DNA of 64,000 bases from a virus, in IMG/VR virus record IMGVR_UViG_3300045988_168118. The stretch is one strand, 5' to 3'. Below the pieces are notes generated by a model that made no database searches, was not told the DNA's origin, and saw only the letters and a program-made list of their open reading frames with translations. Below, in pieces: positions 1-12,607 of this stretch (the stretch's first letter is position 1; each line of letters begins with the position of its first letter). A program made the position numbers and the translations under genes.

Positions 1-120
1 CAGCTCGATTTCATGGCTGAGAAAGTTAAGTGCTTCTTCTTTTGGTTCAAAGTCACTTTCTTCCAGAAAAGCTCTAATGGTTTCAAACCAATCTTTTTTT
101 GTCATTTTGTCTTTCATCAT
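1..120 (-). CDS. Early hypothetical protein, N-terminal part only (gene runs past the window start). Paralog of the 1389..1802 product.
   Basis: Minus-strand translation from ATG at 120 reads MKDKMTKKDWFETIRAFLEESDFEPKEEALNFLSHEIEL, similar to MTKKDFFKLLAGIVEKTEDFDKKTETLDFINHEIELL in 1389..1802. AGAGG lies 8 nt upstream and a consensus promoter sits at 155-183. Confidence 0.4.
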   Translation of the reverse strand, partial: MMKDKMTKKDWFETIRAFLEESDFEPKEEALNFLSHEIEL

Positions 121-154
121 ATTCATTACCTCTTTCTTTCTTTTGATATATTTA

Positions 155-183
155 TTATAGCATACTTTTTTGTTTTTGTCAAT
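155..183 (-). promoter_or_regulatory. Sigma-70-type promoter (TTGACA-17-TATAAT), first copy of a 75-nt duplicated promoter-leader cassette (127-200).
   Basis: On the minus strand, ttgaca at 183-178 and tataat at 160-155 with a 17-nt spacer. The cassette is near-identical to 409-483. Confidence 0.6.
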
Positions 184-213
184 TACTTTTTTATTTTTTT
201 TCTTTTCTGGTGC

Positions 214-402
214 TTACTTAATGTAAGCACCAGCAATAGACTTAACAGAGCCATCAGCATTGAAAAAGATAACATTATTCTGGATAACGTTAATACCTTT
301 ATTCTTTGCAAAATTTCTGAACACAAAGTCTGTATTCCAGAGTTTGATAAAATCAGCTTTTCTCATGCTTGCAAAACCTTTTGTGTAATTCATTGTTCTC
401 AT
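214..402 (-). CDS. Early hypothetical protein, 62 aa, MRTMNYTKGF...
   Basis: The ORF-track start at 492 lies upstream of the promoter. The usable start is ATG at 402, 9 nt after AGAGG and downstream of the 436-464 promoter. Confidence 0.45.
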   Translation of the reverse strand: MRTMNYTKGFASMRKADFIKLWNTDFVFRNFAKNKGINVIQNNVIFFNADGSVKSIAGAYIK

Positions 403-435
403 AGTCAATACCTCTTTCTTTCTTTTGATATATTT

Positions 436-464
436 ATTATAGCATACTTTTTTGCTTTTGTCAA
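436..464 (-). promoter_or_regulatory. Sigma-70-type promoter, second copy of the duplicated cassette (409-483).
   Basis: ttgaca at 464-459 and tataat at 441-436 on the minus strand, 17-nt spacer, followed by the leader gaaagaaagagg. Confidence 0.6.
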
Positions 465-749
465 TTACTTTTTTATTTTTTCTTGTTCCCACAAAACTAC
501 TTGAGTCATAAGCTTACCTTCTTCAATCCAGGCAAGAGAAAAGCTTACAATATTTGGTTGTTTTGGATTAAGATATTCAATAAAATCAATATCAAATTCA
601 AACTCCCATCCTTCTTTTTGATAGGATTCTAATAAATCATTAATAGCATTATAGCTATAATTATAGCTATAACTATCACTATTCCAAAAACCACCTTTTT
701 CTAAATCCGCTTCTAAGCGGTCTAAAATTTTTTCTAACATAAGTACCAC
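465..749 (-). CDS. Early hypothetical protein, 94 aa, acidic with YSYNYSYN.
   Basis: ORF with GGAAGGTGG RBS. Its own promoter is at 787-815. Confidence 0.5.
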   Translation of the reverse strand: MVLMLEKILDRLEADLEKGGFWNSDSYSYNYSYNAINDLLESYQKEGWEFEFDIDFIEYLNPKQPNIVSFSLAWIEEGKLMTQVVLWEQEKIKK

Positions 750-786
750 CTTCCTATTTCTTATTTCTTATTTATTTTATGTATAC

Positions 787-815
787 ATTATATCAAAAGA
801 AAAAATAAAAGTCAA
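787..815 (-). promoter_or_regulatory. Sigma-70-type promoter (TTGACT-17-TATAAT).
   Basis: Reverse complement of 787-815 reads ttgacttttattttttcttttgatataat. Confidence 0.5.
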
Positions 816-1006
816 TGGCATTTTACACAAAATATAATAAAATATTTTGTCTATTTTGACTATTGACAGGTTTAGCATTGTGCATAATAGAGAAAATTGG
901 CGGATTTTGATATAAAATTTTGTTCATTTTACCTATTGACAGAGATTTTTGTGCAAAACGGAGAATTTTGGGATAAAAAGTTTTTTATTTTTGTGCATTT
1001 TTTCTC

Positions 1007-1035
1007 TTGACAAAATCGTCAGCGTATGGTATAAT
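1007..1035 (+). promoter_or_regulatory. Plus-strand consensus promoter (TTGACA 1007-1012, TGgTATAAT 1027-1035), left half of face-to-face promoter unit A.
   Basis: 17-nt spacer and extended -10. Upstream tgtgcattttttctcttgacaaaat is identical to the upstream context of unit C at 4485-4509. No plus-strand gene lies downstream. Confidence 0.55.
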
Positions 1036-1044
1036 GGATATTTC

Positions 1045-1067
1045 GGTCGCCTTGATCCAAGGCGACC
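1045..1067. other. GC-rich hairpin ggtcgcc-ttgatccaa-ggcgacc centred between the two facing promoters of unit A.
   Basis: 7-bp perfect stem. Equivalent hairpins with different sequence but the same position occur in units B (4353-4375) and C (4533-4566). Confidence 0.55.
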
Positions 1068-1071
1068 CGCT

Positions 1072-1100
1072 ATTATACCACACTTTCGGGTGCTTGTCAA
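1072..1100 (-). promoter_or_regulatory. Minus-strand consensus promoter, right half of unit A.
   Basis: Reverse complement reads ttgacaagcacccgaaagtgtggtataat: -35 at 1100-1095, 17-nt spacer, extended -10 TGgTATAAT. Confidence 0.5.
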
Positions 1101-1290
1101 TAGGCAAAATAAACAAAATAAAAAATTTTTTGAGCCTTATTTTTGTTACATTTTCACAAAATTATAGACTGGGACTCTTTGTGCAACAATACCAAAATTA
1201 TAAAAATTTTTTGGCTATTTTTGTAATTTATGTGCATTGACTTTTTTGTTCTCTGGTATTTTTAAATAAAAAACATCCCTCCAGCAGCGG

Positions 1291-1328
1291 ATTTTTTGTG
1301 CAAAAAGTAGAAAAAAAATGCACAAAAA
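1291..1328. repeat. Inverted repeat TTTGTGCA-N20-TGCACAAA, operator-like.
   Basis: ttttttgtgcaaaaagtagaaaaaaaatgcacaaaaaagg. Half-sites recur throughout the islands at 890-1340, 4020-4660 and 7680-7930. Confidence 0.5.
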
Positions 1329-1339
1329 AGGAGGACGGA

Positions 1340-1375
1340 TTTTGTGTAATCCGCCCTCTTGACAAGGTTTATAAG
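1340..1375 (-). terminator. Weak hairpin (cggatt-ttgtgt-aatccg) then U-rich tract on the minus strand, downstream of gene 1389..1802.
   Basis: Minus strand reads cggattacacaaaatccg tcctcctttttt. Confidence 0.3.
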
Positions 1376-1388
1376 TTACTTTTTAGTT

Positions 1389-1802
1389 TTACTCTTCTTT
1401 CTCAGTTTCTTCTTCTTTTGCAAGAGAAAAGTAAGGAACTCTTTTTTCAACTGTCCTGACCACTTTGCCGGCTTCAATCATTTTTTTCAACAGTGCAGAC
1501 AACTTCTGAGAAGAAAGCTTACTCATTTCGGCGTTCTCTTTAATCATTGTAGTTACCGTGACAGGTTTACCAAACAGCTCTAAGGCAATTCCAATAAGTT
1601 CCATAAGCTCCTCATTTTCTTTAATGTGAGCTGTTTTCTTTTTGCCTGGTGCTGAAGATTTCTTATTTAACAGTTCAATCTCGTGATTGATAAAGTCAAG
1701 TGTTTCTGTTTTCTTGTCAAAATCTTCTGTTTTTTCTACGATACCTGCCAGCAGTTTAAAAAAGTCTTTTTTTGTCATTTTGTTTGTGTTTGTCATAATC
1801 AA
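1389..1802 (-). CDS. Early hypothetical protein, 137 aa, possible C-terminal winged-helix region. Paralog of the gene at the window start.
   Basis: ORF with AAAAGGGGAA RBS. Promoter at 1919-1947. A GC-rich leader hairpin gatggtc/gaccatc sits at 1855-1877. Confidence 0.5.
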   Translation of the reverse strand: MIMTNTNKMTKKDFFKLLAGIVEKTEDFDKKTETLDFINHEIELLNKKSSAPGKKKTAHIKENEELMELIGIALELFGKPVTVTTMIKENAEMSKLSSQKLSALLKKMIEAGKVVRTVEKRVPYFSLAKEEETEKEE

Positions 1803-1918
1803 ATTCCCCTTTTCTTTCTTTTAAAATTTTTTTGGTGGCTTGCGGTCGGTGGTCGATGGTCGATTTTGCTGACCATCCGAACCGCTGAAAATATTTTATT
1901 TATTGATTTGCTACAATG

Positions 1919-1947
1919 TTATTATACTACTTTTCTTTGCTATTGTC
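1919..1947 (-). promoter_or_regulatory. Sigma-70-type promoter (TTGACA-17-TATAAT).
   Basis: Reverse complement reads ttgacaatagcaaagaaaagtagtataat. Confidence 0.55.
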
Positions 1948-1957
1948 AAGCATTTTT

Positions 1958-2332
1958 TTATTTTTTCTTTTGTGGTCTATGTTTGATTAACGAAATTGAA
2001 TATTCCGCACCGCCAATTTTGAAAGTAATTTCTTTTTGCGGATTTGCGATTGTCACACTTTCAAAGTTCATTTCCTCAACTTCTTTCAAGTGACTTGCCA
2101 AAATTTCAATGATTTTGACTTTTTCCGCGTCCAATTTTACCTCACGTTTTTTCGTGCTTTTTTTCTCTGGTGTACTCTGAACATAGTTCTTAATGCCTTT
2201 AGCCTTAATTTCCATTTCCGCCATTTCAAGAGCTTCCTCTTTAGTTACCGGTTCTCCATCCGCTTCAAATTCTTTCATCAACTTAATAGCAAGCTTTTCG
2301 ATTGCATCTGCGGTCACTGTTGTTTTAGCCAT
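1958..2332 (-). CDS. Early hypothetical protein, 124 aa, Lys/Glu-rich.
   Basis: ORF. The 63-nt promoter-leader cassette lies upstream at 2358-2419. Confidence 0.5.
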   Translation of the reverse strand: MAKTTVTADAIEKLAIKLMKEFEADGEPVTKEEALEMAEMEIKAKGIKNYVQSTPEKKSTKKREVKLDAEKVKIIEILASHLKEVEEMNFESVTIANPQKEITFKIGGAEYSISLIKHRPQKKK

Positions 2333-2380
2333 GTTATATCACATCCTTTTTAAAATTTACTATTAACTTGTTACAATGGT

Positions 2381-2409
2381 ATTATATCGCATCTTAGCTT
2401 AAAAGTCAA
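2381..2409 (-). promoter_or_regulatory. Sigma-70-type promoter (TTGACT-17-TATAAT), copy 1 of a 63-nt exactly duplicated cassette (2358-2419 = 3149-3210).
   Basis: Placed by the 791-nt offset from the identical copy at 3172-3200. The conserved leader contains the palindrome TTGTAACAA. Confidence 0.55.
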
Positions 2410-3116
2410 GCACTTTCGTGTAATTCTTTTCTTTTTTTCTGCGGCAGTCTCCAACATGACGGCTTAATACTTCTATCCATTTTTTTATGCTGGTCAAAAC
2501 ATTTTTTCATAATTTCAATTTCAATTTTTACATCTTCTAAGCCTGTATGAGATTCTACAAAATCAATATTCTTTTTAATATATTTATAGCATACCTCAGC
2601 GTTAGTTAAAAGATTGCCTTTTTCAGACTCAAATCCGTTTTTCTCAGCAAATTTGATATAGGTGTTTGTACTTAAAATCATCTGACAAGCCATGTTCCAA
2701 ATACAAAAATATTCTGTACCATAAGGGAAAAACCAGCGAATAAAACTTTTGCTATGGTATCTAATAGCATTGTTTAATGCTTTTCTATCAAAATTCATAT
2801 TGTAAGCACCAACTTTTTTCACATTATATTCTCTCATGTCTGCAAACATCTGTTTTCTAATATTGAAAATGCTTTTCATGGTTCTTTTTCCGCTTTTTAA
2901 ATCATCCCAGTATTTCGGAATTTTTTCAGCGTAGTAGGCACTATTCATAGCTTCTTTCAAGTCAATAAATGTCTCAGCGACTACAAAGCTTCTTTCGGTG
3001 ACAATGTTACCGTGTCTATCTGCAATAGCATAGCCAATATCATAAGGGATTGGTTCATTTACACTATTCGCAGTTTCTGTATCCAATACCATGAAAAACT
3101 CTTTTCTTCTACTCAT
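2406..3116 (-). CDS. DEDDh-family 3'-5' exonuclease (DnaQ/epsilon, oligoribonuclease-like).
   Basis: Exo I motif VLDTETAN, Exo II GAYNMNFDRKAL and Exo III HTGLEDV are all present. The likely true start is ATG at 3116 (MSRRKEFF), 9 nt after GAGGA. The track start at 3131 is a TTG. Confidence 0.6.
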   Translation of the reverse strand: MSRRKEFFMVLDTETANSVNEPIPYDIGYAIADRHGNIVTERSFVVAETFIDLKEAMNSAYYAEKIPKYWDDLKSGKRTMKSIFNIRKQMFADMREYNVKKVGAYNMNFDRKALNNAIRYHSKSFIRWFFPYGTEYFCIWNMACQMILSTNTYIKFAEKNGFESEKGNLLTNAEVCYKYIKKNIDFVESHTGLEDVKIEIEIMKKCFDQHKKMDRSIKPSCWRLPQKKRKELHESA

Positions 3117-3171
3117 TTTTGATTTCCTCAACTTTCATTTATTTTTTTTACTATTAACTTGTTACAATGGT

Positions 3172-3200
3172 ATTATATCGCATCTTAGCTTAAAAGTCAA
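3172..3200 (-). promoter_or_regulatory. Sigma-70-type promoter, copy 2 of the 63-nt duplicated cassette.
   Basis: Reverse complement reads cttgacttttaagctaagatgcgatataat. Identical to the copy upstream of 1958..2332. Confidence 0.55.
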
Positions 3201-3210
3201 GCACTTTCGT

Positions 3211-3390
3211 TTATTTTTTAAAATCTTTTAACTGTTGGTTCGTAGACAACTCTTTAATTTTATATTTATGCAACCTATTGTTTAAACAATGAGTGCATGA
3301 ACCATGATTTCTGCATGACATTGACTTTGCTTTTGCTCTGCGGTATTCTTTTCTATGTTCTTTACCACTTCTGATTGCTTTATCCATCAT
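3211..3390 (-). CDS. Small basic Cys/His-rich protein, 59 aa (MMDKAIRSGKEHRKEYRRAKAKSMSCRNHGSCTHCLNNRLHKYKIKELSTNQQLKDFKK), possibly zinc-binding. Not in the ORF track because it is under 60 aa.
   Basis: Read manually from the minus strand. AGGTGA lies 8 nt upstream of ATG at 3390 and the stop TAA is at 3213-3211. Confidence 0.35.
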   Translation of the reverse strand: MMDKAIRSGKEHRKEYRRAKAKSMSCRNHGSCTHCLNNRLHKYKIKELSTNQQLKDFKK

Positions 3391-3407
3391 ATTCTATCAC
3401 CTACTTT

Positions 3408-3881
3408 CTATAAAAAATTTTTTAAGATTTCCATAATATTATTTACATCAAAAGCACCTTTTCCCCACTCGATTCGATTTTTTTCTTCATCATCAAAAAG
3501 CCACCCCTTGCAATCAACGACAGTACTTTTTGGTGTACCATAGTTTACAATTTTGATTTCATCCCATTTAATACTAGGTAAGTGTTTTTCAAGCCATGCA
3601 AGTTTTACACTTGTTACCGCCGTATTATAAGAAGCTGACCCGCTTTTACTTAACCAGCTTACAATACCAATTCTATAGCCATTAGCTTGTAACTTGTGAA
3701 GCACTCTTGCGAAAACTGAAAAATTAAAAAGTGGTTTTGCTACTTTGTATGGTGTAGTGTCTTCTTTTTCCAAATATGCTAACCAGTTTTCCACGCCGTA
3801 GAAGTTAGCAAGTGTGCCGTCCATGTCAAAATAAATAGTTCCCTTTGTGCTCATCATTTCTTTAATTGTATTATCCATCAT
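3408..3881 (-). CDS. HAD-superfamily 5'(3')-deoxyribonucleotidase-like protein (NT5C family).
   Basis: HAD motif I in YFDMDGTLANF, as in the cytosolic deoxyribonucleotidase VDMDGVLADF. The track start at 3893 is a TTG. The real start is probably the ATG-ATG at 3881/3878. Confidence 0.55.
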   Translation of the reverse strand: MMDNTIKEMMSTKGTIYFDMDGTLANFYGVENWLAYLEKEDTTPYKVAKPLFNFSVFARVLHKLQANGYRIGIVSWLSKSGSASYNTAVTSVKLAWLEKHLPSIKWDEIKIVNYGTPKSTVVDCKGWLFDDEEKNRIEWGKGAFDVNNIMEILKNFL

Positions 3882-3993
3882 AATAATTATCAATCCTTTC
3901 TTTTTTGATTATCGCAAGTGCCTTGCGACCGACCGCTCATTATGTAAGCTTTGCTTTATTTCTGATTTAAGTTTAATGTCCTTTGACAAGTAT

Positions 3994-4022
3994 ATATTAC
4001 TACATCTTAGCGAAAAAGTCAA
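3994..4022 (-). promoter_or_regulatory. Probable promoter (TTGACT-17-TAATAT) for 3408..3881, with leader hairpin cgcaag-gca-cttgcg at about 3925-3945.
   Basis: Reverse complement reads ttgactttttcgctaagatgtagtaatat. Confidence 0.4.
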
Positions 4023-4319
4023 ATTTATTTTTTATTGTGCAAAAGTGATGAAATTTTATATAAAAATCATAGTATTTTTGTCAAAATATACAAATGTAGA
4101 AAAATAATGCGGATTTAGGCGGATTCTTGTGCATTTTGCTACCTTAAATATCACATATTGTGTTTCTGCGTGTCAAAAAAGGTATGATTTTTTATTAAAA
4201 TTTCGTCACTTTGCACAAGGTGTAGAAAATTTTGGTATTATTTTATTAAATTTTGTGCATTTTGTATACCATGTCAAAAAATGGGATTTTTTTAATTTAT
4301 TTTTTGTGCAAATTGCCTA

Positions 4320-4348
4320 TTGACAAAAAGGTGCTAGATGTGGTATAA
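4320..4348 (+). promoter_or_regulatory. Plus-strand consensus promoter, left half of unit B.
   Basis: gcctattgaca-aaaaggtgctagatgtgg-tataat: -35 at 4320-4325, -10 at 4343-4348, extended TGg. Preceded by ttttgtgcaaattgcctattgaca. Confidence 0.55.
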
Positions 4349-4394
4349 TAAAATTTCGGGGTGCCCCGACCCCGAACGGACTTTGCCCTCTTTC

Positions 4395-4423
4395 ATTATA
4401 ACATACTCGAGCCACCTTGTCAA
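4395..4423 (-). promoter_or_regulatory. Minus-strand consensus promoter, right half of unit B.
   Basis: Reverse complement reads ttgacaaggtggctcgagtatgttataat (TGtTATAAT). It is followed on the minus strand by gaaagaggg and then the hairpin at 4353-4375 (ttcgggg..ccccgaa). Confidence 0.5.
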
Positions 4424-4501
4424 GAGTTTTTTTCAAAAAAAATGCACAAATTTTGGGATAAAAATTTTGAAAAATTTGTGCATTTTTTCTCTTGACAAAA
4501 T

Positions 4502-4530
4502 GTCTCAACTATGTTATAATGGAAGGCTCG
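4502..4530 (+). promoter_or_regulatory. Plus-strand consensus promoter, left half of unit C.
   Basis: ttgacaaaatgtctcaactatgttataat. Its upstream 25 nt are identical to unit A. Confidence 0.55.
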
Positions 4531-4568
4531 GCTCGCATTGACTGCTCGCGAGCCGGCTATTATAACAC

Positions 4569-4597
4569 ATTTTCCGCGACTTGTCAACCCCTTTTTA
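4569..4597 (-). promoter_or_regulatory. Minus-strand consensus promoter, right half of unit C.
   Basis: Reverse complement reads ttgacaagtcgcggaaaatgtgttataat. The hairpin ggctcgc-attgactgctc-gcgagcc (4533-4566) abuts both -10 elements. Confidence 0.5.
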
Positions 4598-4663
4598 AAA
4601 AATTTTTTATTTTCGTCATTTTGCACAAAAATAAAATTCAGCATTTTGCACAAAAAACAAAAG

Positions 4664-4700
4664 TCTAATTTACTTAGACTTTTGTTATAAAAATTTTTTC
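4664..4700. terminator. Bidirectional rho-independent terminator (caaaagtcta-atttact-tagacttttg with U-runs on both strands).
   Basis: 10-bp stem. It ends the plus-strand transcript from the unit C promoter, roughly 190 nt with no ATG, and the minus-strand gene 4751..4903. Confidence 0.55.
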
Positions 4701-4750
4701 TGCTTATGACTAGTTATTTTCATTATTTATTATTAAATTCACGTGATTTC

Positions 4751-4903
4751 TTATTTTTTTCGTTTCATTATTGCTTCATAAGCAATTTTTACTATTTCTT
4801 TTGAAATGTTTTGATTCTCTGCTATTTTACAGAATATAATTACTGTGTCATTTTCAAATCCTTTTACTTGAATCATTTTATCCATCATCTCTGTCCTTGT
4901 CAT
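4751..4903 (-). CDS. Small early protein, 50 aa (MTRTEMMDKMIQVKGFENDTVIIFCKIAENQNISKEIVKIAYEAIMKRKK). Not in the ORF track.
   Basis: Consensus promoter 4926-4954 and RBS AGAGAGG upstream of ATG at 4903. Confidence 0.35.
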   Translation of the reverse strand: MTRTEMMDKMIQVKGFENDTVIIFCKIAENQNISKEIVKIAYEAIMKRKK

Positions 4904-4925
4904 TATTGTTTTCCTCTCTTTCTTT

Positions 4926-4954
4926 AACTGTCTTTATTATATCACAAGAAGCTG
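4926..4954 (-). promoter_or_regulatory. Sigma-70-type promoter with conserved AAAGAGAGG leader.
   Basis: Reverse complement reads ttgacaaaatcagcttcttgtgatataat. Confidence 0.55.
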
Positions 4955-4971
4955 ATTTTGTCAACCCCTTT

Positions 4972-5205
4972 TTATAAAATTCCTTCAATTTTACAACATC
5001 TTCTGCAAGCATTAATACAATCATTCCATGCGTCATCATCATTTGCGTACTGCGTCAAGATTCTCTCATCCCACCCATCTTCTAACCCACAAGTAAACCA
5101 AACGTCAATGACAATGTCTTCGCTAATATTTTCTCTGATAAAAACATCCATCTGTCTAAGAAGATTCTTTCTAATTCTAACTATCTCTTTTCTTGATACG
5201 CTCAT
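4972..5205 (-). CDS. Early Cys-rich small protein, 77 aa (MSVSRKEIVRIRKNLLRQMDVFIRENISEDIV...CINACRRCCKIEGIL). Paralog of 5222..5509.
   Basis: The start is reassigned to ATG at 5205, after promoter 5236-5264 and RBS AGAGAGG. The track extends it upstream to 5346 through the promoter. Confidence 0.5.
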   Translation of the reverse strand: MSVSRKEIVRIRKNLLRQMDVFIRENISEDIVIDVWFTCGLEDGWDERILTQYANDDDAWNDCINACRRCCKIEGIL

Positions 5206-5221
5206 TTTATTTACCTCTCTT

Positions 5222-5509
5222 TCATTTGATACATTTATTATACCATATTTCCGACTTTTTGTCAACCCCTTTTTTAAAAAAATCAATTCCTTCAATTTCA
5301 AAACATTTGCGATAAGCGTTAATACAATTACACCAAGAATCATCATCGCTTACACACTTTGTTAGAATATCATCATTCCATCCATCTTTAAACAGGGGAA
5401 GCCAAACATTAGTTATTACGTCTTCACTAATGTATTTTCTGATGAATGAATTCATTCGTCTGAGATAATACTTTTTAATTTCAATTATTTCATCTCTTGA
5501 AAACTCCAT
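5222..5509 (-). CDS. Early Cys-rich small protein, 95 aa. Paralog of 4972..5205. Its C-terminus reads through the next promoter.
   Basis: ISEDVITNVWLPLFKDGWNDDILTKCVSDDDSWCNCINAYRKCFEIEG aligns with ISEDIVIDVWFTCGLEDGWDERILTQYANDDDAWNDCINACRRCCKIEG. Promoter 5537-5565. Confidence 0.5.
   Translation of the reverse strand: MEFSRDEIIEIKKYYLRRMNSFIRKYISEDVITNVWLPLFKDGWNDDILTKCVSDDDSWCNCINAYRKCFEIEGIDFFKKGVDKKSEIWYNKCIK
5236..5264 (-). promoter_or_regulatory. Sigma-70-type promoter followed by the ATCAAATGAAAGAGAGG leader.
   Basis: Reverse complement reads ttgacaaaaagtcggaaatatggtataat. Confidence 0.55.
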
Positions 5510-5536
5510 TTTTCCTCTCTTTCATTTGATATATTT

Positions 5537-5565
5537 ATTATACTATAGGTCTTGACTTTTGTCAA
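5537..5565 (-). promoter_or_regulatory. Sigma-70-type promoter whose -35 lies in a perfect palindrome ggtcttgac-tttt-gtcaagacc (5546-5567).
   Basis: Reverse complement reads ttgacaaaagtcaagacctatagtataat, followed by the atcaaatgaaagagagg leader. Confidence 0.55.
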
Positions 5566-5584
5566 GACCTATTTTAAATTAGTT

Positions 5585-5746
5585 TTAAAGAAGTTTTTGA
5601 AGTTTGCCGTCAGCATCAAATTGAAAGCCAATGTTTTCACCATAAGAAGAAAGCTCAGCTTCAAAATAATCCTTTTCCTCATAGCAAATCTCTATGTCGG
5701 CTTTTTTAAAAATCTGTAATAAAATTTCTTTATCTGTTTTTTTCAT
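5585..5746 (-). CDS. Small early protein, 53 aa (MKKTDKEILLQIFKKADIEICYEEKDYFEAELSSYGENIGFQFDADGKLQKLL). Not in the ORF track.
   Basis: Promoter 5783-5811 (TTGACA-17-TATACT) and RBS AAGAGG before ATG at 5746. Confidence 0.3.
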   Translation of the reverse strand: MKKTDKEILLQIFKKADIEICYEEKDYFEAELSSYGENIGFQFDADGKLQKLL

Positions 5747-5782
5747 TTTTATCAACCTCTTTCTCTTTCATTTGATATATTA

Positions 5783-5811
5783 AGTATAGCAGATATTTTT
5801 TATTTTGTCAA
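5783..5811 (-). promoter_or_regulatory. Sigma-70-type promoter (TTGACA-17-TATACT) with ATCAAATGAAAGAGAAAGAGG leader.
   Basis: Reverse complement of 5783-5811. Confidence 0.45.
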
Positions 5812-5873
5812 GCCTTTTTTAAAAAAAGGAAGATTTTTTATCTTCCTTTTTTCCCCATAACTCCATCTTGTTT

Positions 5874-6035
5874 TTATCTCAGTAATCTTAATAAATAGTT
5901 ATTTTCATGCTCTTTCAAAAAAGCGTTAATTTCTTCTATTGTTTCAGCGTAAATCTCGCCTGTCTCAGTGTCTACCAACATCAATTTTTTACTTCCTAAA
6001 AATAATCCTAAATCTAACATATTTAAGCCCTCCAT
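5874..6035 (-). CDS. Tiny ORF, about 53 aa (MEGLNMLDLGLFLGSKKLMLVDTETGEIYAETIEEINAFLKEHENNYLLRLLR), translationally coupled to the ORF upstream of it.
   Basis: TAATG stop/start overlap at 6033-6037. An internal ATG at 6020 is preceded by GGAGGG. Confidence 0.25.
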   Translation of the reverse strand: MEGLNMLDLGLFLGSKKLMLVDTETGEIYAETIEEINAFLKEHENNYLLRLLR

Positions 6036-6154
6036 TAAGAAATTTTTACCAGATAACCGTTTGTATTTTTTTCTACTGAAAAAATGTATTGATTATCTTT
6101 TAAGTATTTTTTTACAGTTTCAAATGCTTTTCGAGTTGTCAGTAACATTGTCAT
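6035..6154 (-). CDS. Tiny ORF, 39 aa (MTMLLTTRKAFETVKKYLKDNQYIFSVEKNTNGYLVKIS).
   Basis: Promoter 6187-6215 (TTGACA-17-TATCAT) and RBS GAGAGG before ATG at 6154. Confidence 0.25.
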   Translation of the reverse strand: MTMLLTTRKAFETVKKYLKDNQYIFSVEKNTNGYLVKIS

Positions 6155-6186
6155 ATTTCTTTACCTCTCTTTCATTTGATAATACT

Positions 6187-6215
6187 ATGATACTATATTT
6201 CCTTGCTTTTGTCAA
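6187..6215 (-). promoter_or_regulatory. Sigma-70-type promoter with ATCAAATGAAAGAGAGG leader.
   Basis: Reverse complement reads ttgacaaaagcaaggaaatatagtatcat. Confidence 0.45.
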
Positions 6216-6264
6216 GCATTTTAGGAAAATTTCTAAAGATTTTTTTATGCGGATTTCCACTGAA

Positions 6265-6330
6265 AAAACCTGAACTTAAGGAGATTGTAGGTGAACCGAC
6301 TCCAAAACTGTCAAGTTCGGGAGTCCCTTT
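6265..6330. terminator. Compound Y-shaped hairpin (cctgaactt...aagttcggg enclosing ggag/ctcc) with U-runs on both strands. Bidirectional terminator or insulator between early transcription units.
   Basis: 9-bp outer stem with one G-U pair, then gggagtcccttttttattt on the plus strand and ttttttcag on the minus strand. Confidence 0.4.
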
Positions 6331-6600
6331 TTTATTTAAGGAATGATTCTAAAGCCTTATAGCATAAATCAGCGTTTTCTTTATCTTTTATGCTAGTACC
6401 TTTAGAAAAGTCATTCATAGCGGCTGTTAGTAATTCCGGCACTGAAATAAATTCAAATACCAGTTGTAAAGCCGCCAATTCATTAAGATTGACTTTTTTT
6501 CATCGGTTCTTTCCTATCTCCTTTTTAAATATTTTATTTTCTTTACATTATTATTATATCAAATTTTTTAATAAAATTCAAAAAAGATACTTTATCTAAA

Positions 6601-6640
6601 TAAGCAAAGAAAAGGGCTGAACCTATTCCGCCCTTTTCCC
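6601..6640. terminator. Rho-independent terminator for the minus-strand gene 6650..6913 (agggc-N12-gccct, U-runs on both sides).
   Basis: Minus strand reads agggcggaataggttcagccct tttctttgcttattt. Confidence 0.45.
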
Positions 6641-6649
6641 GCTTTTCCG

Positions 6650-6913
6650 CTATCCTATTATCTCTGCATCTGTAATAATATCATCTGTCACACTATCAGT
6701 CCCTAAAGAATCCATGTATAATTTAACTTTATCTCTTGCTTTAAAACCGTCCCCGTAGAAACTCCATACATGCCCGTAGCTATCCATAACAACCACTTCA
6801 TTATTAAAAGAGCTAATCACTTTAGCTTCTCTTGTATACTTAGTAAAGCTACCAAAACCGCAAATACTACTTAAAGTTGCACTTACTATTAATCCTAAAA
6901 TCACCTTTTTCAT
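6650..6913 (-). CDS. Small secreted or lipoprotein-like early protein, 87 aa from MKKVILGLIVSATLSSICG.
   Basis: N-terminal signal-peptide-like hydrophobic stretch ending in Cys. The start is reassigned to ATG at 6913, because the track start is a TTG. Probably co-transcribed with 6919..7197. Confidence 0.45.
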   Translation of the reverse strand: MKKVILGLIVSATLSSICGFGSFTKYTREAKVISSFNNEVVVMDSYGHVWSFYGDGFKARDKVKLYMDSLGTDSVTDDIITDAEIIG

Positions 6914-6918
6914 TATGT

Positions 6919-7197
6919 CTAACTCCAACCTCTTTCTTTCTTAATCTTTTCGTATCTTCTTTTTTCTTCTTCTTCAATCTTCTTTTTGTCGTATACTCTA
7001 ACTTTCATTCTAGTATATCCGTCTCTTTTTAAACACCAACGTTCTGTTTTACGTTGTATTACTATCTTGTCGATAGCCCTTTGCTGTACCTCTTGCTTAT
7101 GAGTGTTATAATATTTGATACTCTCAATTTCTAATAAAGTACTTATTGGTCTGTACTTATTTGTTACACTAAACAAAGTGCATTGAATTGTTATCAT
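6919..7197 (-). CDS. Early hypothetical basic protein, 92 aa, with KKKIEEEEKRRYEKIKKERGW C-terminus.
   Basis: ORF with RBS AAAGAGAGGTGA. Promoter 7223-7251. Confidence 0.45.
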   Translation of the reverse strand: MITIQCTLFSVTNKYRPISTLLEIESIKYYNTHKQEVQQRAIDKIVIQRKTERWCLKRDGYTRMKVRVYDKKKIEEEEKRRYEKIKKERGWS

Positions 7198-7222
7198 CTT
7201 ATCACCTCTCTTTTCAAGTATT

Positions 7223-7251
7223 ATTATACTACCTTATTATACCATTGTCAA
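7223..7251 (-). promoter_or_regulatory. Sigma-70-type promoter (TTGACA-17-TATAAT).
   Basis: Reverse complement reads ttgacaatggtataataaggtagtataat. Confidence 0.5.
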
Positions 7252-7262
7252 GCTTTATTTAC

Positions 7263-7640
7263 AGTATTTTTATTTATTTTAATGCATATTTACTCATGTT
7301 ATTAAGATTAATAGTTAGTTTTAAATATATATATTTATATCTTTTTTATAAATAGTAAAATAAAATATAATATAAATATTATCATACTATTTTATTTAGT
7401 ATTATTTTATAAGCTTATTATTATTATTATTATACTATCTTATTATAATTATTATAAGATATTACAGTACCAATGTTAACATTATTATCATTATATTTCT
7501 TCTTTATATATAGTTATAATTGATAAGATTAACAATAATATAAGATAATGTTATTGTTAATTATATTTATGTATTGTATTGTTATAATATTGTATTATTA
7601 TTATTATTATTATTATCTTTCTTTTGTCTTAAGCTTAACC
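7263..7640. repeat. A/T-only tract of about 380 bp and roughly 10% GC, with (ATT)n/(TTA)n microsatellites at 7417-7434 and 7596-7618 and short TATA/ATAAT repeats. No ORF.
   Basis: Seen directly. Stop codons are frequent in all frames. Confidence 0.7.
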
Positions 7641-7679
7641 TCTCATTATAGCACCTTTAGCTCATTCTGTCAATAGACA

Positions 7680-7935
7680 TTTTACACAATTTTTCCTTTA
7701 AAACTTTGTGCAGATTGCCTATTGACATTTTTTGTCTATTGACATTTTACACAAAAATGAGAATATATTTTTGTACACTTTTACTATTGACAGGGTTTGT
7801 CAATAGACATAATGCACAAAATTTTCCACGTATTTTTGTACAATTTTACCTATTGACAAGTTCATTTTAGGAAAATATCTTTGTGCATTTTTTACAAAAA
7901 TTTAGCCAAAAATTTGTGCATTTTGCCTATTGACA
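7680..7935. promoter_or_regulatory. Cluster of at least 6 copies of the 9-10-mer (C/T)CTATTGACA(G/A) in both orientations, interleaved with TTGTGCA/TGCACAA half-sites. Includes the palindrome ctattgacagggtttgtcaatag. Iteron-like or operator array.
   Basis: Copies at about 7727, 7745, 7786, 7800 (reverse), 7850 and 7922. Most lack a good -10 at 17 nt, so they are unlikely all to be promoters. The triple composite tttgtgcaNNttgcctattgaca occurs at 4300, 7717 and 7910. Confidence 0.5.
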
Positions 7936-8451
7936 GGCTTCTCGGAGCGTTGCGAAAGTGTACGCTCCGACGATAGATGGCAAGCTACCAATAGCCAATA
8001 AAAATTCTAATCTTCTTGCTTTATTTTAGTTATTTAAAGAATTTATTTTATTAGTTTAACTCTTTCTCCTCTTTGCTTAAAATAATGTGTTCAAAACTCT
8101 TCTGAACAAAAAGCATATCCTCTTTGGAAAATGATTTGAAAAATTATTTGTTAGGCGGTGTCTTGTTGCTTCTTGCTCAAAAGAGATGCTCAAACTACAG
8201 ACCATACTTAAACATAATGCCGGGGTATATTAAAGGATTAAAATTTTTTACTTTTATAAAAAGATAGTGTTCTCCACAATTCTCTCTCCAAAAATTTTTT
8301 CAAATCTAAAAGTCTAAAAATAAAATCAAAAAACGAGAATTAAAAATCTCTCCAAAAAATTTTTTTAAACAAATTAAAATAAAATAAAATAAAGAGGATT
8401 TTAAAAAAATAAAAATATTTCTCATTTTCTCTTTAAAAACTACCCGCGATA

Positions 8452-9204
8452 TCAAACAAGGCTCCGAAAAGCGTCTAAATTAGATCCATTAGGGATAGCA
8501 AAAATTATTTTTTTAAAAATATAATTATTAGATAATTTCATAAATATCTTTTTAACTTCATTAGGATCTTGACCAAAAGCTCCGCATCCAAAAGCTCCTA
8601 AGATTAGAACATCAATTTTATTTTTCGCCGCAATGTCTAAAATAAAAGAGATTCTTTCTTTTAAAGCCTTAGTATTTTCTTCATCTGTTATCCCATTACG
8701 CTTAGCTTCTTTTTTATTCGGGGCTGCACAAGTAATAATATCACAATTATAAAAATCTTCAAAAAGAATGTTTGGACTATAAATCGCTCTATTCCAATAC
8801 AAACCGCGATTTATTAAGTTTTTATTTTCTCCATAAAAATCTTCTCTTTGCCGCCACAAAATATTATAAAGAATAGACTTATGACATAAGCTTCCTTCTT
8901 GAGTACTACTTCCTTTTAAAAAGCCTCCGCCAGGATATTTAAAAGATGCAAAATTAAGTGCGGCAATCTTACTATCAGGAAATTCAGATACAGCTTTTTT
9001 AATAGCATTAACAGTATCAGTTTCCCATATTTCATAATTAAGATTTTTTTCATTTATTTTCTTCATTTTATTTGCAATAGAACCTGGCACAAAACCACTA
9101 TAATATTTAGTTCTTGCGTTACACCATGCGATTTTATCTGAATATTCTTTTTCCATTTTATAAAAATGATTTATGGCTTGAATAGCTCTTTCTTTTTTAT
9201 TCAT
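8452..9204 (-). CDS. Bacterial-type poly(ADP-ribose) glycohydrolase / macrodomain hydrolase (DUF2263, TIGR02452 family).
   Basis: PARG signature NFASFKYPGGGFLKGSSTQEGSLCHKSILY (GGG-X7-QE) plus the diphosphate loop GAFGCGAFGQDP. It closely mirrors the NFANPxxPGGGFLxGAxAQEExLCRxSxLY and GAWGCGVFGN motifs of bacterial PARGs. The second catalytic Glu is replaced, giving QEG rather than QEE. Confidence 0.65.
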   Translation of the reverse strand: MNKKERAIQAINHFYKMEKEYSDKIAWCNARTKYYSGFVPGSIANKMKKINEKNLNYEIWETDTVNAIKKAVSEFPDSKIAALNFASFKYPGGGFLKGSSTQEGSLCHKSILYNILWRQREDFYGENKNLINRGLYWNRAIYSPNILFEDFYNCDIITCAAPNKKEAKRNGITDEENTKALKERISFILDIAAKNKIDVLILGAFGCGAFGQDPNEVKKIFMKLSNNYIFKKIIFAIPNGSNLDAFRSLV

Positions 9205-9224
9205 CTATTAACATCCTCGTTTTA

Positions 9225-9413
9225 TTAGAACATCGCATTTGCTTGTTCATAATATTTTAATTCTTGAATCCAAGCGATTGGAATTACCATTTCCGCTTTA
9301 GCATATCTTTCTATAGCATCCATAATCTCATTTCTTCTACTATTAATTACTTCTAATCTAAAAGCTTCACGCGGAACCAAACCTGCAACTGTCTTTTTTG
9401 CTTCATTATTCAT
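9225..9413 (-). CDS. Hypothetical protein, 62 aa.
   Basis: ORF packed tightly between the PARG-like and DUF2493 genes, with 2-nt and 20-nt gaps. Confidence 0.4.
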   Translation of the reverse strand: MNNEAKKTVAGLVPREAFRLEVINSRRNEIMDAIERYAKAEMVIPIAWIQELKYYEQANAMF

Positions 9414-9414
9414 A

Positions 9415-9762
9415 TTATTTTCCTCCTATTTTAATTACTTTACCATGCTTTCCATTCATTTTCATTTTCATAATAATTTTTCTAATTATTGCATCTTTTC
9501 CGTCATAAAAAAATATACCAAAATCAATATTTTCTACCATTTTCTGAATTAATTTATCTATGTTGCGATCAAATACATATTCAATAGGAGCACCATTATT
9601 TTCTGCCCATATTTTTCCAATAGACTCCGAGAGCTTCTTCTCCGTATTCCCGCAAACAACAGTAAATAAATAACATTGCGTTTCGCGGATAAAATCTTCC
9701 ATAGTTGCGGAGACTAGGCGATTATCTGCGAAACCGCGACTTCCAAGAATACTAATTTTCAT
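9415..9762 (-). CDS. DUF2493 / SLOG-superfamily (DprA/LOG-like Rossmann) protein.
   Basis: ILGSRGF...VVCGNTEKKLSESIGKIWAENNGAPIEYVF...FFYDGKDAIIRKIIMKMKMNGKHGKVIKI matches the DUF2493 pattern vtGsRdf...vhGgarGaD...waae.gvp.e.f...fwdGkSrGTkhmielakk.gkpv.vi. RBS AAGAGGAAAAAG. Confidence 0.5.
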   Translation of the reverse strand: MKISILGSRGFADNRLVSATMEDFIRETQCYLFTVVCGNTEKKLSESIGKIWAENNGAPIEYVFDRNIDKLIQKMVENIDFGIFFYDGKDAIIRKIIMKMKMNGKHGKVIKIGGK

Positions 9763-9843
9763 TTCTTTTTCCTCTTGTTTTATTTATAAAATAATTATAA
9801 CAAAAATTTTTTAAAAAATCCAATTAAAGTGCTTTAATCAAAT

Positions 9844-9872
9844 TTGACAAAAAAATTTTTTTGTGGTATAAT
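9844..9872 (+). promoter_or_regulatory. Consensus promoter (TTGACA-17-TGgTATAAT) for the plus-strand morphogenesis block. It diverges from the minus-strand promoter of the SLOG-PARG operon, TGtTATAAT at about 9795-9803.
   Basis: tttgacaaaaaaatttttttgtggtataat, 27 nt upstream of RBS AAGGAG and the ATG at 9900. Confidence 0.6.
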
Positions 9873-9899: not shown

Positions 9900-11063
9900 A
9901 TGACACCAATAACATTAGAAGATAAGGCTTTTGAGGAGAATAATGTTTTAGAAGAAGAAAAAAAAATAACAGAAAAACAAATCGAAGAAGAAAATATGCA
10001 AACTACTATTAAACTAGATTATTCTTTAGAAACTCCTGAAGAGCGGAATGAATTAGTTAAAAAAATTATAGATAAGACTCCTTCTGAGCAATTAACACCT
10101 AAATATTTAGAAATATTATCAGATTACATTATTTTTGCTATGGATAAACAAGAGCGGAAACAGAAGCAAATATTAACTGATAATCATATGGTCACAGTTA
10201 ATAAAAGAGAAACTTCTTTTGAAGGATTAGTTGGTCGCTTAGAGAATGGCGAAGATGGCATTTATAATATGATCGCCAATGATAAGAATATTATTTTTAC
10301 ACCTAAATTTCAAATAACTCAACAGGATATTGCGGAAATCCCTGAGTTAAAGCAACTTGTAGACGCGATTGCGGAAGTCGAAAAAGCTGAGAAAAAAGCA
10401 GTTGGTAAAAAGAAATTTTTATTAAAAAAGCAACTTATTGCTATGAGACAAGATCAATATGTAATTAGAAGTGCATACAAGCCGCCAATTTATTGTATGA
10501 ACGCAATTAAAAGTTTTAGCAAAATTGATTTTGATGAAAATGTTTCTATTAGCGGAAATGATGAAATTGAAGATAATAGCTTAGTTTCTTTTTTTAATCC
10601 TAAGCACATATCTGCATTATTATGTAACTATTCCCGCCTAAAAGAAGATGCATGGGGAAAATTCTACAGTGATTCATATTTTTTAATGGAGGATTTAGAT
10701 ACATTAATAGAGAAGACTCTAAGAGATAGTTATCCAATGTATTATGACCTCTTGATTTATAAAATAGACGGAAAACAAAATCTTGAAATTCAGAGTCTGT
10801 TGAATCAAAAACACAATGTAAAACATTCAGTGGAATATATATCATCTTTATGGCGGAATAAAATACCTAAGCTATTGTCAGAGCAAGCTCAGGAAGACTA
10901 TTTAATTTGGTATTACACAACTCAGAAAAAAGGAAAATGGAAAAAATGTTCCCGTTGTGGGGAAATCAAATTAGCTCATAATAAATTTTTTTCAAAGAAT
11001 AAGACAAGTAAAGATCATTTTTACAGTATATGTAAATGTTGTCGAAATAAGAAAAATAAATAA
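9900..11063 (+). CDS. Hypothetical protein, 387 aa, with C-terminal C4 zinc ribbon (CSRCGEIK...CKCC).
   Basis: ORF with RBS AGGAG. First gene of the late block. No family recognised. Confidence 0.55.
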   Translation: MTPITLEDKAFEENNVLEEEKKITEKQIEEENMQTTIKLDYSLETPEERNELVKKIIDKTPSEQLTPKYLEILSDYIIFAMDKQERKQKQILTDNHMVTVNKRETSFEGLVGRLENGEDGIYNMIANDKNIIFTPKFQITQQDIAEIPELKQLVDAIAEVEKAEKKAVGKKKFLLKKQLIAMRQDQYVIRSAYKPPIYCMNAIKSFSKIDFDENVSISGNDEIEDNSLVSFFNPKHISALLCNYSRLKEDAWGKFYSDSYFLMEDLDTLIEKTLRDSYPMYYDLLIYKIDGKQNLEIQSLLNQKHNVKHSVEYISSLWRNKIPKLLSEQAQEDYLIWYYTTQKKGKWKKCSRCGEIKLAHNKFFSKNKTSKDHFYSICKCCRNKKNK

Positions 11064-12275: not shown

Positions 12276-12607
12276 GTTTAAAAGGTCTATTAGATTTATC
12301 TGAATCTAGAACCCTTAAGAAACAGGGCATGTCAGAAGAAAGACTAAAAGCTCAACTTCCTCATTTAAGAAATCTAATCGCTTATTATAGAGAATATCCA
12401 GACCTTTTGGTAGACTTTATGAAAGGTCCTGAGAGTACTTTTAAATTCTTTTTTTATCAGAGAATATTTTTAAGGATTACGATGCGGCATAGGTATGTGT
12501 ATGCTACTTTTCCACGTGCGTATAGTAAATCATTCTTATCTATGATGATTCTTATGTTAAGGTGTATTCTCTATCCTAATTCACATTTGTTTGTTACTAC
12601 TGGTGGT
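12272..12607 (+). CDS. terL: Terminase large subunit, exon 1 (ATPase domain with Walker A-like ATFPRAYSKSF).
   Basis: FYQRIFLRIT...ATFPRAYSKSFLSMMILM...HLFVTTGG is TerL N-terminal architecture. The open frame hits a stop 2 codons later. The proposed 5' splice site is after T12607. Confidence 0.6.

Follow-up and report, generated by a model that had tools for sequence, protein, structure and literature searches.

The 64-kb window analyzed here (the whole of a 64,000-nucleotide stretch of viral DNA, IMG/VR record IMGVR_UViG_3300045988_168118) has a G+C content of about 30% and begins with a region, positions 1-9800, in which small genes are read leftward, almost all of them from a consensus promoter of their own and with a strong ribosome-binding site. 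Among these genes lie three islands (780-1340, 4020-4660 and 7680-7935) in which independent gene calls on four near-identical contigs placed no gene, in agreement with their original description as intergenic. This work concerns a heptamer repeated in the islands, TTGTGCA, hereafter the box, which the original prediction took for the half-site of an operator array serving a phage repressor or activator or, alternatively, for part of the iterons of a replication initiator. Overlooked at that time were two properties of the islands: they are clusters of consensus promoters of the sigma-70/sigma-A type, several of them orphan, and they contain three pairs of promoters placed face to face around a GC-rich hairpin.

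Perfect promoters, which match TTGACA-17/18-TATAAT at 12 of 12 positions, number 14 in the first 9 kb, and strong promoters (one mismatch at most) number 21 in the first 10 kb versus 8 across the remaining 54 kb. The promoters of ordinary early genes mostly lack the box and read aaaaaGGGG-TTGACA or similar. Rightward from 9900 follow genes for a sigma-like protein (phrog_5767), a small-terminase-like protein, a split large terminase, a portal and a tape measure protein of 2842 amino acids (aa), and farther to the right the minus strand encodes an anaerobic ribonucleotide reductase and a 1304-aa DNA polymerase, with the replication genes at 54-64 kb of the window. Near-identical contigs have lengths of up to 135-140 kb. 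Among cultured phages, the closest relatives are the ~140-kb Enterococcus phages EF1 and VRE9, at about 30-45% amino acid identity, with Geobacillus virus E3 also among the nearest, and phAss-1 from the human gut virome is a further relative. The gene layout, the length of the near-identical contigs and the kinship with EF1/VRE9 and phAss-1 thus identify the region as the early, host-takeover-like part of a large uncultivated siphovirus (~137 kb) of an anaerobic Firmicute. Comparing the first 9 kb with 50,697 phage records at the level of near-identical DNA gave no match, and scanning the whole window with Rfam (gathering threshold) and for tRNAs found nothing. Two other identities were discarded: an N4-like virion RNA polymerase recognizing hairpin promoters, as the 2842-aa protein is the tape measure and the 1304-aa protein a DNA polymerase, and kinship with SPbeta, as the nearest cultured relatives are those named above.

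The box is present in 26 copies in the window against 7.1 expected, and 19 of these fall within the 1,458 nucleotides (nt) of the islands, which make up 2.3% of the window. When the islands themselves were shuffled, 0.13 copies were expected and none of 2000 shuffles reached 19. By region, 20 copies were counted against 1.0 expected in the first 10 kb, and 6 against 5.7 expected between 10 and 64 kb. A second motif of the original prediction, CTATTGACA, occurs 11 times in 64 kb against 0.5 expected from dinucleotide shuffles, with 10 copies inside the islands as they were first delimited and the eleventh just outside, at 7668-7676. Enrichment over a shuffled background and conservation in relatives thus hold for both motifs. 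The second does not constitute a family beyond the promoter hexamers, as had been proposed, since it is the -35 hexamer plus 3 nt, at a fixed 16 nt from the box. The third proposed family, GCGGATT, fared worse as an island motif: although the listed copies exist and the window as a whole is enriched (18 copies, 3.4 expected), 14 of these copies are situated outside the islands, and no positional preference was found near 1,326 promoters of relatives. Its supposed neighborhood to the box applies only to the copies at 1287 and 4119 (the latter one of two in island 2, with 4109), and at 1348 the motif forms one arm of a terminator stem.

Six of the 19 island boxes start exactly 16 nt upstream of TTGACA. 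Alignment of all TTGACA hexamers of the early region, counting degenerate boxes with one or two changed bases, yielded 11 units of a composite 22-mer, TTGTGCA-N9-TTGACA, most often reading TTGTGCA-nn-TTGCCTA-TTGACA; a perfect -10 follows in five of them and no -10 in the other six. The fusion of TGTGCA with gcctattgaca noticed earlier (GCCTATTGACA) was recovered at 4304-4325, 7706-7727 and 7914-7935. The remaining 13 of the 19 island boxes stand outside the -16 register, and inverted pairs are present. Register was measured across relatives in 80 loci fetched through a neighboring exonuclease-like gene, independently of the motif, which comprise 1,991 strong promoters; this gene-anchored count replaces one on motif-fetched loci, which was partly circular. 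Relative to the -35 hexamer, TTGTGCA was found at -16 (n = 108), -17 (n = 38) and -26/-27 (n = 53), and the inverted form TGCACAA at -49/-50 (n = 71) and -39/-40 (n = 35). The box is therefore centered near -48 from the start site, and a second, inverted copy near -71 or -81. With steps of about 10 nt, the sites must lie on one face of the helix with respect to the polymerase, and this phasing, together with a position upstream of the -35, suits a factor contacting RNA polymerase better than a classical core-promoter operator. On a contig of ~179 kb (L021), seven consecutive small genes within 6 kb are each preceded by a box promoter, and TGCACAA, as a second and inverted copy, stands about 33 nt farther upstream.

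The face-to-face pairs consist of perfect promoters whose -35 hexamers lie at 1007+/1100-, 4320+/4423- and 4492+/4587-, and all three are convergent, as in a promoter-interference switch. In module A the antisense promoter (991-1035, plus strand; box 991-997, -35 1007-1012, -10 1030-1035) is followed by the spacer GGATATTT, a hairpin at 1045-1067 with a 10-bp stem (RNA fold -17.8 kcal/mol) and the sense promoter (1072-1116, minus strand; -10 1072-1077, -35 1095-1100, degenerate box TTGTTTA 1110-1116). Module B comprises an antisense promoter at 4304-4349 (plus strand; TTGTGCAAATTGCCTATTGACA, an 18-nt spacer and TATAAT), a hairpin at 4355-4376 and a sense promoter at 4395-4449 (minus strand; -10 4395-4400, -35 4418-4423) whose box, 4443-4449, is in the -26 register. 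Module C has its antisense promoter at 4476-4520 (plus strand; box 4476-4482, -35 4492-4497, -10 4515-4520), its hairpin at 4525-4558 and a box-less sense promoter at 4559-4587 (minus strand). The distances between the two -10 elements are 36, 45 and 38 nt, respectively, the norm in relatives being 36-38 nt; in the fetched loci of relatives 46 of 66 convergent promoter pairs had a gap of 30-39 nt, and tandem pairs showed no such peak. The modules are asymmetric, with 7-8 A/T-rich bases (GGAAATT) between one -10 and the stem and 2-4 bases on the other side, and the promoter on the A/T-spacer side was antisense to the early genes in 40 of the 40 modules of the gene-anchored sample, a polarity shared by the window and by three further contigs (L135, L112 and L125).

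The hairpins of these modules are unrelated in sequence between phages (median ungapped identity 0.35) and have a G+C content of 69% in genomes of about 30-40% G+C. Their stem pairing is nevertheless preserved: 93% of alignment cells pair, against 68% in shuffles (0 of 500 reach 93%) and 31-40% with slid partners, and compensatory changes were found at 5 of 6 pairs, with 44 double-change cells. Examined as terminators, they have the GC-rich stem; the sense tail reads AAUUUCC or AAAUUUUU, and the antisense tail carries no U-run. Within a module the predicted start sites are ~22-30 bp apart, and the Escherichia coli open complex extends ~20 bp downstream of the start site, so two polymerases should exclude each other. 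Similar units occur in EF1 (L141), where antisense promoters are followed by short GC hairpins at 6540-6650 and 8500-8610; the TTGTGCA core is missing from this phage, which does have the far-upstream element TTTTGGGATA / TTTTAGGATA and may serve as an experimental model for antisense promoter units.

Besides the modules, the islands hold boxes and composite units in other arrangements. In island 1 the promoter of gene 465..749 (787-831, minus strand; TTGACT-17-TATAAT) has a degenerate box, TTGTGTA, 15 nt upstream of its -35 and thus off the -16 register. It is followed on the plus strand by an orphan composite TTGTCTA-N9-TTGACA with a degenerate box and no usable -10 (847-868), a free-standing box (878-884), an orphan TTGTTCA-N9-TTGACA lacking a -10 (920-941), and a free box followed by AATTTTGGGAT (949-975); the far-upstream element of this stretch, TGCACAAATTTYGGGAT, recurs in relatives (GGGAT at -37/-38). 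Another free box lies at 1179-1185 (plus strand), and at 1292-1329 stands the inverted repeat of the original prediction, TTTTTTGTGCA-N16-TGCACAAAAAA, with 11-nt arms (1292-1302 and 1319-1329) around the core elements TTTGTGCA (1295-1302) and TGCACAAA (1319-1326). The repeat is real, with a spacer of 16 nt instead of the 20 first reported, and its left arm with the next bases (TTGTGCAAAAAGTAGAAA) is also found upstream of promoters in L021. The box at 1319-1325 falls in the T-run of the intrinsic terminator of gene 1389..1802 (1331-1358, minus strand), one stem arm of which is the GCGGATT mentioned above. Island 2 has four free boxes, none of them 16 nt upstream of a -35 (4035-4041, 4127-4133 and 4253-4259 on the plus strand, 4212-4218 on the minus strand). 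At 4615-4686 the terminator hairpin of gene 4751..4903 (4656-4686, minus strand) is followed on that strand by two direct copies of TTTTTGTGCAAAATG, with boxes at 4622-4628 and 4647-4653; these are the direct repeats described earlier, CATTTTGCACAAAAA at 4615-4629 and 4640-4654.

At the edge of island 3, a perfect leftward promoter (7645-7689, minus strand), with the box variant TTGTGTA at -16, reads into an A+T-rich tract (7260-7620). Then follow two overlapping units on the plus strand (7706-7744; -35 hexamers at 7722 and 7739, the first unit being TTGTGCAGATTGCCTATTGACA), both lacking a -10, and a palindromic pair of -10-less units (7771-7819), TTGTACA-N9-TTGACA, 5 nt and TGTCAA-N9-TGCACAA. 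A further plus-strand unit (7836-7887) has TTGTACA at -17, a -35 at 7853 and the weak -10 TATCTT, followed by a free box (7881-7887), and the last one (TTGTGCATTTTGCCTATTGACA, 7914-7970, plus strand), also without a -10, has a GC hairpin at 7942-7970, six nt downstream, an arrangement that recurs in relatives. Judged as sigma-70/sigma-A promoters, those at 1007+, 1100-, 4320+, 4423-, 4492+, 4587- and 7673- match all 12 positions and that at 815- matches 11, whereas for the units at 847, 920, 7706, 7723, 7771, 7798 and 7914 the best -10 has 3-5 mismatches.

The 20-base pattern TTGTGCANNTTGCCTATTGACA matched 98 stretches of IMG/VR. Among 185,579 species genomes, one per species, it was found in only 38 contigs, several of them 140-180 kb long, all from metagenome bins or uncultured isolates and none from cultured strains. 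This contrast indicates that the pattern is phage-borne and not a feature of host promoters. Public bins label the contigs carrying the 22-mer (L099-L136, several of them 140-180 kb) as Treponema, Bacteroidales, Alphaproteobacteria, Endomicrobiaceae and many Clostridia, and these contigs under varied bacterial names are probably mis-binned phage contigs. In relatives at ~70% identity the box array of island 3 is syntenic, again beside an AT-rich tract and a GC hairpin, and tight palindromes such as TTGTGCAATTTGCACAA occur in relatives. In the cultured phage EF1, which shares the gene order and the strong promoters, a single box was counted where 4.1 were expected; the figures are 2 for 5.8 expected in phAss-1 and 16 for 1.7 expected in MT835855. 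A search for box variants in box-poor relatives revealed no general alternative pattern, with only one locus, L219, showing a palindromic motif of its own. The recurrent upstream motifs seen in such relatives were TTAGATGT/ACATCTAA in L219 and AAGTGTAAAGT in L183, and a 119-aa protein family (MAVSRKVERE...) is encoded in 13 of 36 box-poor loci versus 0 of 44 box-rich ones. Sub-clades may use different pairs of box and factor.

Units without a -10 are not a peculiarity of the window. The gene-anchored sample contains 121 units of the form box-N9-TTGACW, of which 96 are followed by a good -10 and 25 by none; for many of the latter, a hairpin adjoining a reverse promoter is 6-9 nt away. The unit at 7914-7970 matches this arrangement, but without the reverse promoter after the hairpin. 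Because -10-less units are conserved beside hairpins, the combination of box and -35 appears from its sequence pattern to have a role that does not need transcription from it.

Two early genes of the minus strand, between islands 1 and 2, encode candidates for a box-binding protein. The product of 1389..1802 (137 aa), transcribed from its own box-less promoter at 1921-1949, had been called winged-helix-like, and its structure model (predicted local distance difference test, pLDDT, 75) agrees, showing a helical hairpin and a C-terminal winged helix with weak Foldseek matches (E 0.019 or worse) to winged helices of the ArsR/SmtB, HxlR, MarR and Z-alpha types. The predicted recognition helix, QKLSALL, is invariant across its 247-protein family. 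Among 136 motif-fetched loci, 46 have the gene close to the motif; it also accompanies the 16 boxes of MT835855, and it was not found in cultured phages, EF1 included, or in phAss-1. A search of solved structures with the sequence of the 137-aa protein gave nothing significant, and Pfam found no DNA-binding domain in ten early proteins. Identification as a Z-alpha domain was rejected: the fold matches (template modeling, TM, score 0.86 on the target, E = 0.025), but the Asn/Tyr/Trp triad is absent, its positions (N173, Y177 and W195 of ADAR1) being Ser, Lys and Phe/Tyr in a manual alignment. The 5' leader of this gene (1803-1920) is unusually G+C-rich and repetitive (ggtcggtggtcgatggtcg ... 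gaccatccgaaccgc) and may be a structured leader. The second candidate, a 124-aa protein of no recognizable fold (1958..2332), belongs to the family that emerged from an unbiased scan of gene families as the best positive associate of box enrichment, being present in 41 of 44 box-rich loci versus 20 of 36 box-poor ones (p = 1e-4). Both proteins are candidates for the box binder, a role that is putative for the winged-helix protein.

On balance, and with reserve, we favor the reading that the islands are non-coding clusters of host-type (sigma-70/sigma-A) early promoters, among them a special class with a clade-specific TTGTGCA upstream box, that the box is the site of a clade-specific protein touching RNA polymerase, and that this class is combined with promoter-interference modules. 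A dedicated binding protein is suggested by a base-specific heptamer containing G and C, used in both orientations, often away from any -35 and absent from relatives with the same promoter consensus. That this protein binds independently, and that the box is not purely an intrinsic element of RNA polymerase, is argued by the 13 of 19 island boxes that stand off the -16 register and by the inverted pairs. Contact with the polymerase, in turn, is suggested by the fixed register and the 10-nt phasing upstream of the -35. The bound protein would touch the polymerase at the alpha subunit's C-terminal domain (alpha-CTD) or at sigma region 4 and would modulate the box promoters once the first, box-less early genes are expressed. 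The antisense box promoter would act as an interference gate on the facing sense promoter, the balance between the two being set by the box-binding factor; in the -10-less versions the bound factor or a closed polymerase complex would itself serve as the gate.

Several observations count against this reading. The box promoters already have a perfect consensus, so that an activator seems unnecessary, and both the strict -35 register and the perfect TTGACA of -10-less units could also be explained if RNA polymerase recognized the sequence directly. As to the binder, the winged-helix gene is only weakly linked to box enrichment in the 80 gene-anchored loci (35 of 44 box-rich versus 24 of 36 box-poor), its co-occurrence with the box is confounded by phylogeny and by the 8-kb flanks, and the structure model of the 124-aa protein yielded no fold match in Foldseek (all E 0.9 or worse). 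As to the modules, the 45-nt gap of module B is outside the 36-38 nt norm, and mutual exclusion of two polymerases is deduced from footprint sizes in E. coli.

The operator array of the original prediction survives in part under the favored reading. A short conserved site is repeated in early promoter regions, as in arrays of the lambda type or of the SPBRE/MrpR type, and TGTGCA is informative, conserved and, from its sequence features, best read as a protein-binding site. The geometry, on the other hand, fits a classical core-promoter operator less well: the box itself lies upstream of the -35, although the conserved 22-mer includes the -35 hexamer. Neither an integrase nor a repressor was found among the window proteins scanned with PHROGs and Pfam, which covered part of the open reading frames (ORFs), or among the gene calls of the 10-kb left flank. 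The known sites resembling the box were discarded as well. For a DnaA box (the 9-mer TTATNCACA) only the copy at 879-887 fits, where the box at 878-884 with two further bases gives TGTGCATAA; elsewhere TGTGCA is followed by A/T-variable bases and then TTGCC. The sites of Rex and CRP-FNR (TTGTGAA-N4-TTCACAA and TGTGA-N6-TCACA) differ from the box in the half-site, TGTGCA, and the spacing of inverted copies varies here (3, 16 and ~30 nt).

Among the alternatives, a real if minority possibility is that no dedicated factor exists and that the T-tract with TGTGCA is a UP-like or DNA-shape element, with flexible TG/CA steps flanked by phased T-tracts, which would help the host polymerase to capture promoters right after DNA entry through alpha-CTD and upstream wrapping, the -10-less units being docking or decoy sites for polymerase. 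UP elements are A/T-only sequences at -38 to -59 bound by alpha-CTD, and the box lies within this zone, in a strict register with 10-nt phasing and with a perfect TTGACA kept even in -10-less units; EF1 is T-rich at the same place, without the GTGC core, and upstream curved DNA reportedly boosts the early promoters of the Bacillus phage SP82. A UP element proper was discarded, since the GTGC core, despite its fitting position, is conserved base for base, and this G/C-containing heptamer, the two thirds of island boxes off the -16 register, the tight palindromes of relatives and the absence of the element from related phages with the same promoter consensus speak for a bound protein instead. 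It is unlikely, in our view, that the modules encode very short hairpin RNAs, or antisense RNAs made from the antisense promoters, that act in trans or in cis (as decoys, regulators of early mRNAs or primers), with the box merely part of their promoters. Such RNAs would be in keeping with antisense promoters that are perfect in all elements, including a GG discriminator, and start just before the covarying stem, with the absolute polarity (40/40) and with the similar units of EF1. However, the lack of a U-tract past the hairpin in the antisense direction means that no defined short RNA is predicted, G-U pairs do not favor the antisense strand (15 versus 26 on the other), and there is no Rfam match; the unrelated hairpin sequences disfavor an RNA acting in trans by sequence, and the hairpin is kept beside units that have no -10.

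A replication origin fits poorly. In that explanation, to which we assign a low probability, the box arrays, especially that of island 3, would be iterons next to an AT-rich unwinding tract, with the winged-helix protein as initiator. Seven 22-mer-like units do lie in island 3 beside the 360-nt AT-rich tract, in ~1.25 kb of non-coding DNA, the array, tract and GC hairpin keep their place in relatives at ~70% identity, and many replication initiators are winged-helix proteins. Nonetheless, in many phages single early genes have the box in front of them, at a set distance from the -35, it is present in three islands and not one, its units are irregularly spaced (17-77 nt) and of mixed orientation, and no gene for an initiator or helicase loader adjoins the islands, the replication genes being at 54-64 kb. 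Hardly credible is the view that the orphan units are functionless, decaying duplicates of promoter cassettes. The early region is indeed full of duplicated promoter/5'-untranslated region (UTR) cassettes and paralogous small genes, and several boxes are degenerate (TTGTCTA, TTGTTCA, TTGTACA and TTGTTTA); decay would not be expected to leave box and -35 perfect while the -10 is wholly missing, nor to produce a -10-less unit beside a hairpin that recurs in many distant contigs, in an arrangement syntenic at ~70% identity.

A bolder extension of the favored reading, which we regard as speculative and rather improbable, is that the ~95-bp module is an unrecognized, self-contained device of a large clade of gut phages: a gate of polymerase mutual exclusion that would read the state of the host, or a box-bound factor, and decide whether a block of early genes is expressed. 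Its parts would be the box, a consensus promoter, the 7-nt A/T spacer, the covarying GC hairpin and the reverse consensus promoter. As the two promoters would differ in discriminator and initiating nucleotide (G/C-rich for the sense, GGAAATT for the antisense one), the device might sense GTP against ATP, supercoiling or free polymerase, and the -10-less versions would be the same gate shut by the factor alone.

The guts of humans and animals have yielded at least 350 contigs of uncultivated phages with this element. A conserved box in fixed register offers a concrete handle for finding a factor of early-transcription timing, the face-to-face module is a compact natural design for promoter interference that could be reused in synthetic biology, and the 22-mer is a specific tag for spotting this phage clade in metagenome bins.

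Other features of the region were recorded. A duplicated promoter/5'-UTR cassette, TTGACA-17-TATAAT-AAATATATCAAA(A/T)GAAAGA(A)AGAGGT, is common to the small early genes, with copies including 154-182, 436-464, 4936-4964, 5237-5265 and 5537-5565, and several of the genes are paralogous, for example 4972-5200 and 5222-5509. The tract at 7260-7620 that flanks island 3, downstream of the perfect promoter 7673-, is extremely A+T-rich and microsatellite-like (TTA/TAT repeats). A similar tract closes the early region ~4 kb to the left of the window start (L139, 14790-14880); next to it, 1.2 kb of non-coding DNA contain a 44-nt direct repeat that surrounds a long palindrome. Two IMG/VR contigs of the phage end nearby, possibly at a genome end or an assembly-breaking repeat. 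Positions 7990-8450 (~460 nt) have no ORFs and contain repeated TCTCTCCAAAAAATTTTTT-like segments, and the equivalent place of contig L097 has a different, 31-nt tandem repeat. Genes at 8452-9204 and 9415-9762 encode a microbial-type PARG/macro-domain protein (Pfam PF10021, E = 3e-23) and an SLOG/YspA-like protein, possibly counter-defense enzymes removing ADP-ribose. The 387-aa sigma-like protein (9900-11063) matches the PHROG 'sigma factor' family (E = 1.5e-51) without a Pfam sigma domain; it has a Cys-rich C-terminal tail (CxxC...CxxC), its own promoter at 9844 is perfect, host-type and box-less, and a sequence search of solved structures gave nothing significant. The large terminase is apparently split: an N-terminal part of 114 aa (12272-12616) is encoded apart from a C-terminal part of 400 aa (13792-14994), with a 215-aa ORF (12643-13290) and ~500 nt of non-coding DNA in between. 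At the homologous position EF1 is annotated 'HNH homing endonuclease # Phage intron', and the split is likely a group I intron or similar insertion.

Neither box nor module was described in the literature searched on the motif, on convergent early promoters and on phAss-1, and the nearest parallels are with elements of known kinds. The host-takeover module of the Bacillus phage SPO1 and the early promoters of SP82, reportedly described by Stewart et al. in 1998 and by McAllister and Achberger in 1988-89, respectively, resemble the present region in having many small early genes, each with a very strong sigma-A promoter and a strong ribosome-binding site, and, in SP82, upstream DNA that adds to promoter strength. 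To our knowledge, neither a TTGTGCA box nor face-to-face promoter/hairpin modules are known in these phages, which are unrelated to the present one, a siphovirus with a 2842-aa tape measure. In phage phi29, protein p4 binds inverted-repeat sites upstream of the -35 at promoters A2c and A3 and contacts alpha-CTD; it represses a strong promoter by blocking escape and activates a weak one, and class I activators contact the polymerase alike. The inverted-repeat sites upstream of the -35 are common to both cases, but site sequence and protein family are different, p4 not being a winged-helix protein.

Another likeness is with the Bacillus prophage SPbeta, a ~134-kb siphovirus in which a short conserved element is also repeated at early promoters: the 15-bp SPBRE, present in the promoter regions of about ten early genes, is bound by the master repressor MrpR and was found in silico long before its binding protein (PMC10516654). 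SPBRE, however, serves maintenance of lysogeny through a recombinase-like repressor, and no integrase or repressor was seen in the proteins examined in the window and its flanks. Convergent promoters tens of bp apart interfere with each other in P2 (Pe/Pc), coliphage 186 (pR/pL) and the restriction-modification system Ecl18kI, where a protein bound at one promoter sets the output of the other (PMC3675496, PMC2760811). Each of those systems has one switch, bound up with lysogeny or with the control of restriction-modification, unlike the present module, which occurs several times per early region with a fixed 36-38-nt geometry, a covarying GC hairpin and some copies lacking one -10. Short elements just upstream of the -35, in the zone of alpha-CTD contact, include UP elements and the -45AGCA-42 element of Spx/alpha-CTD in Bacillus subtilis, also at a fixed distance from the -35 (PMC2801614). 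The latter is 4 nt long, lies ~3 nt closer to the -35 and resembles the box only loosely, in GCA; identification with Spx was discarded, the literature match being a mutagenesis primer and not a natural site. The box, its register and a repeated promoter-hairpin-promoter module of fixed spacing and polarity are all missing from SPBRE, the p4 sites, SPO1 and the face-to-face switches. Box and module are thus related to known kinds of element, and they are widespread in uncultivated gut phages.

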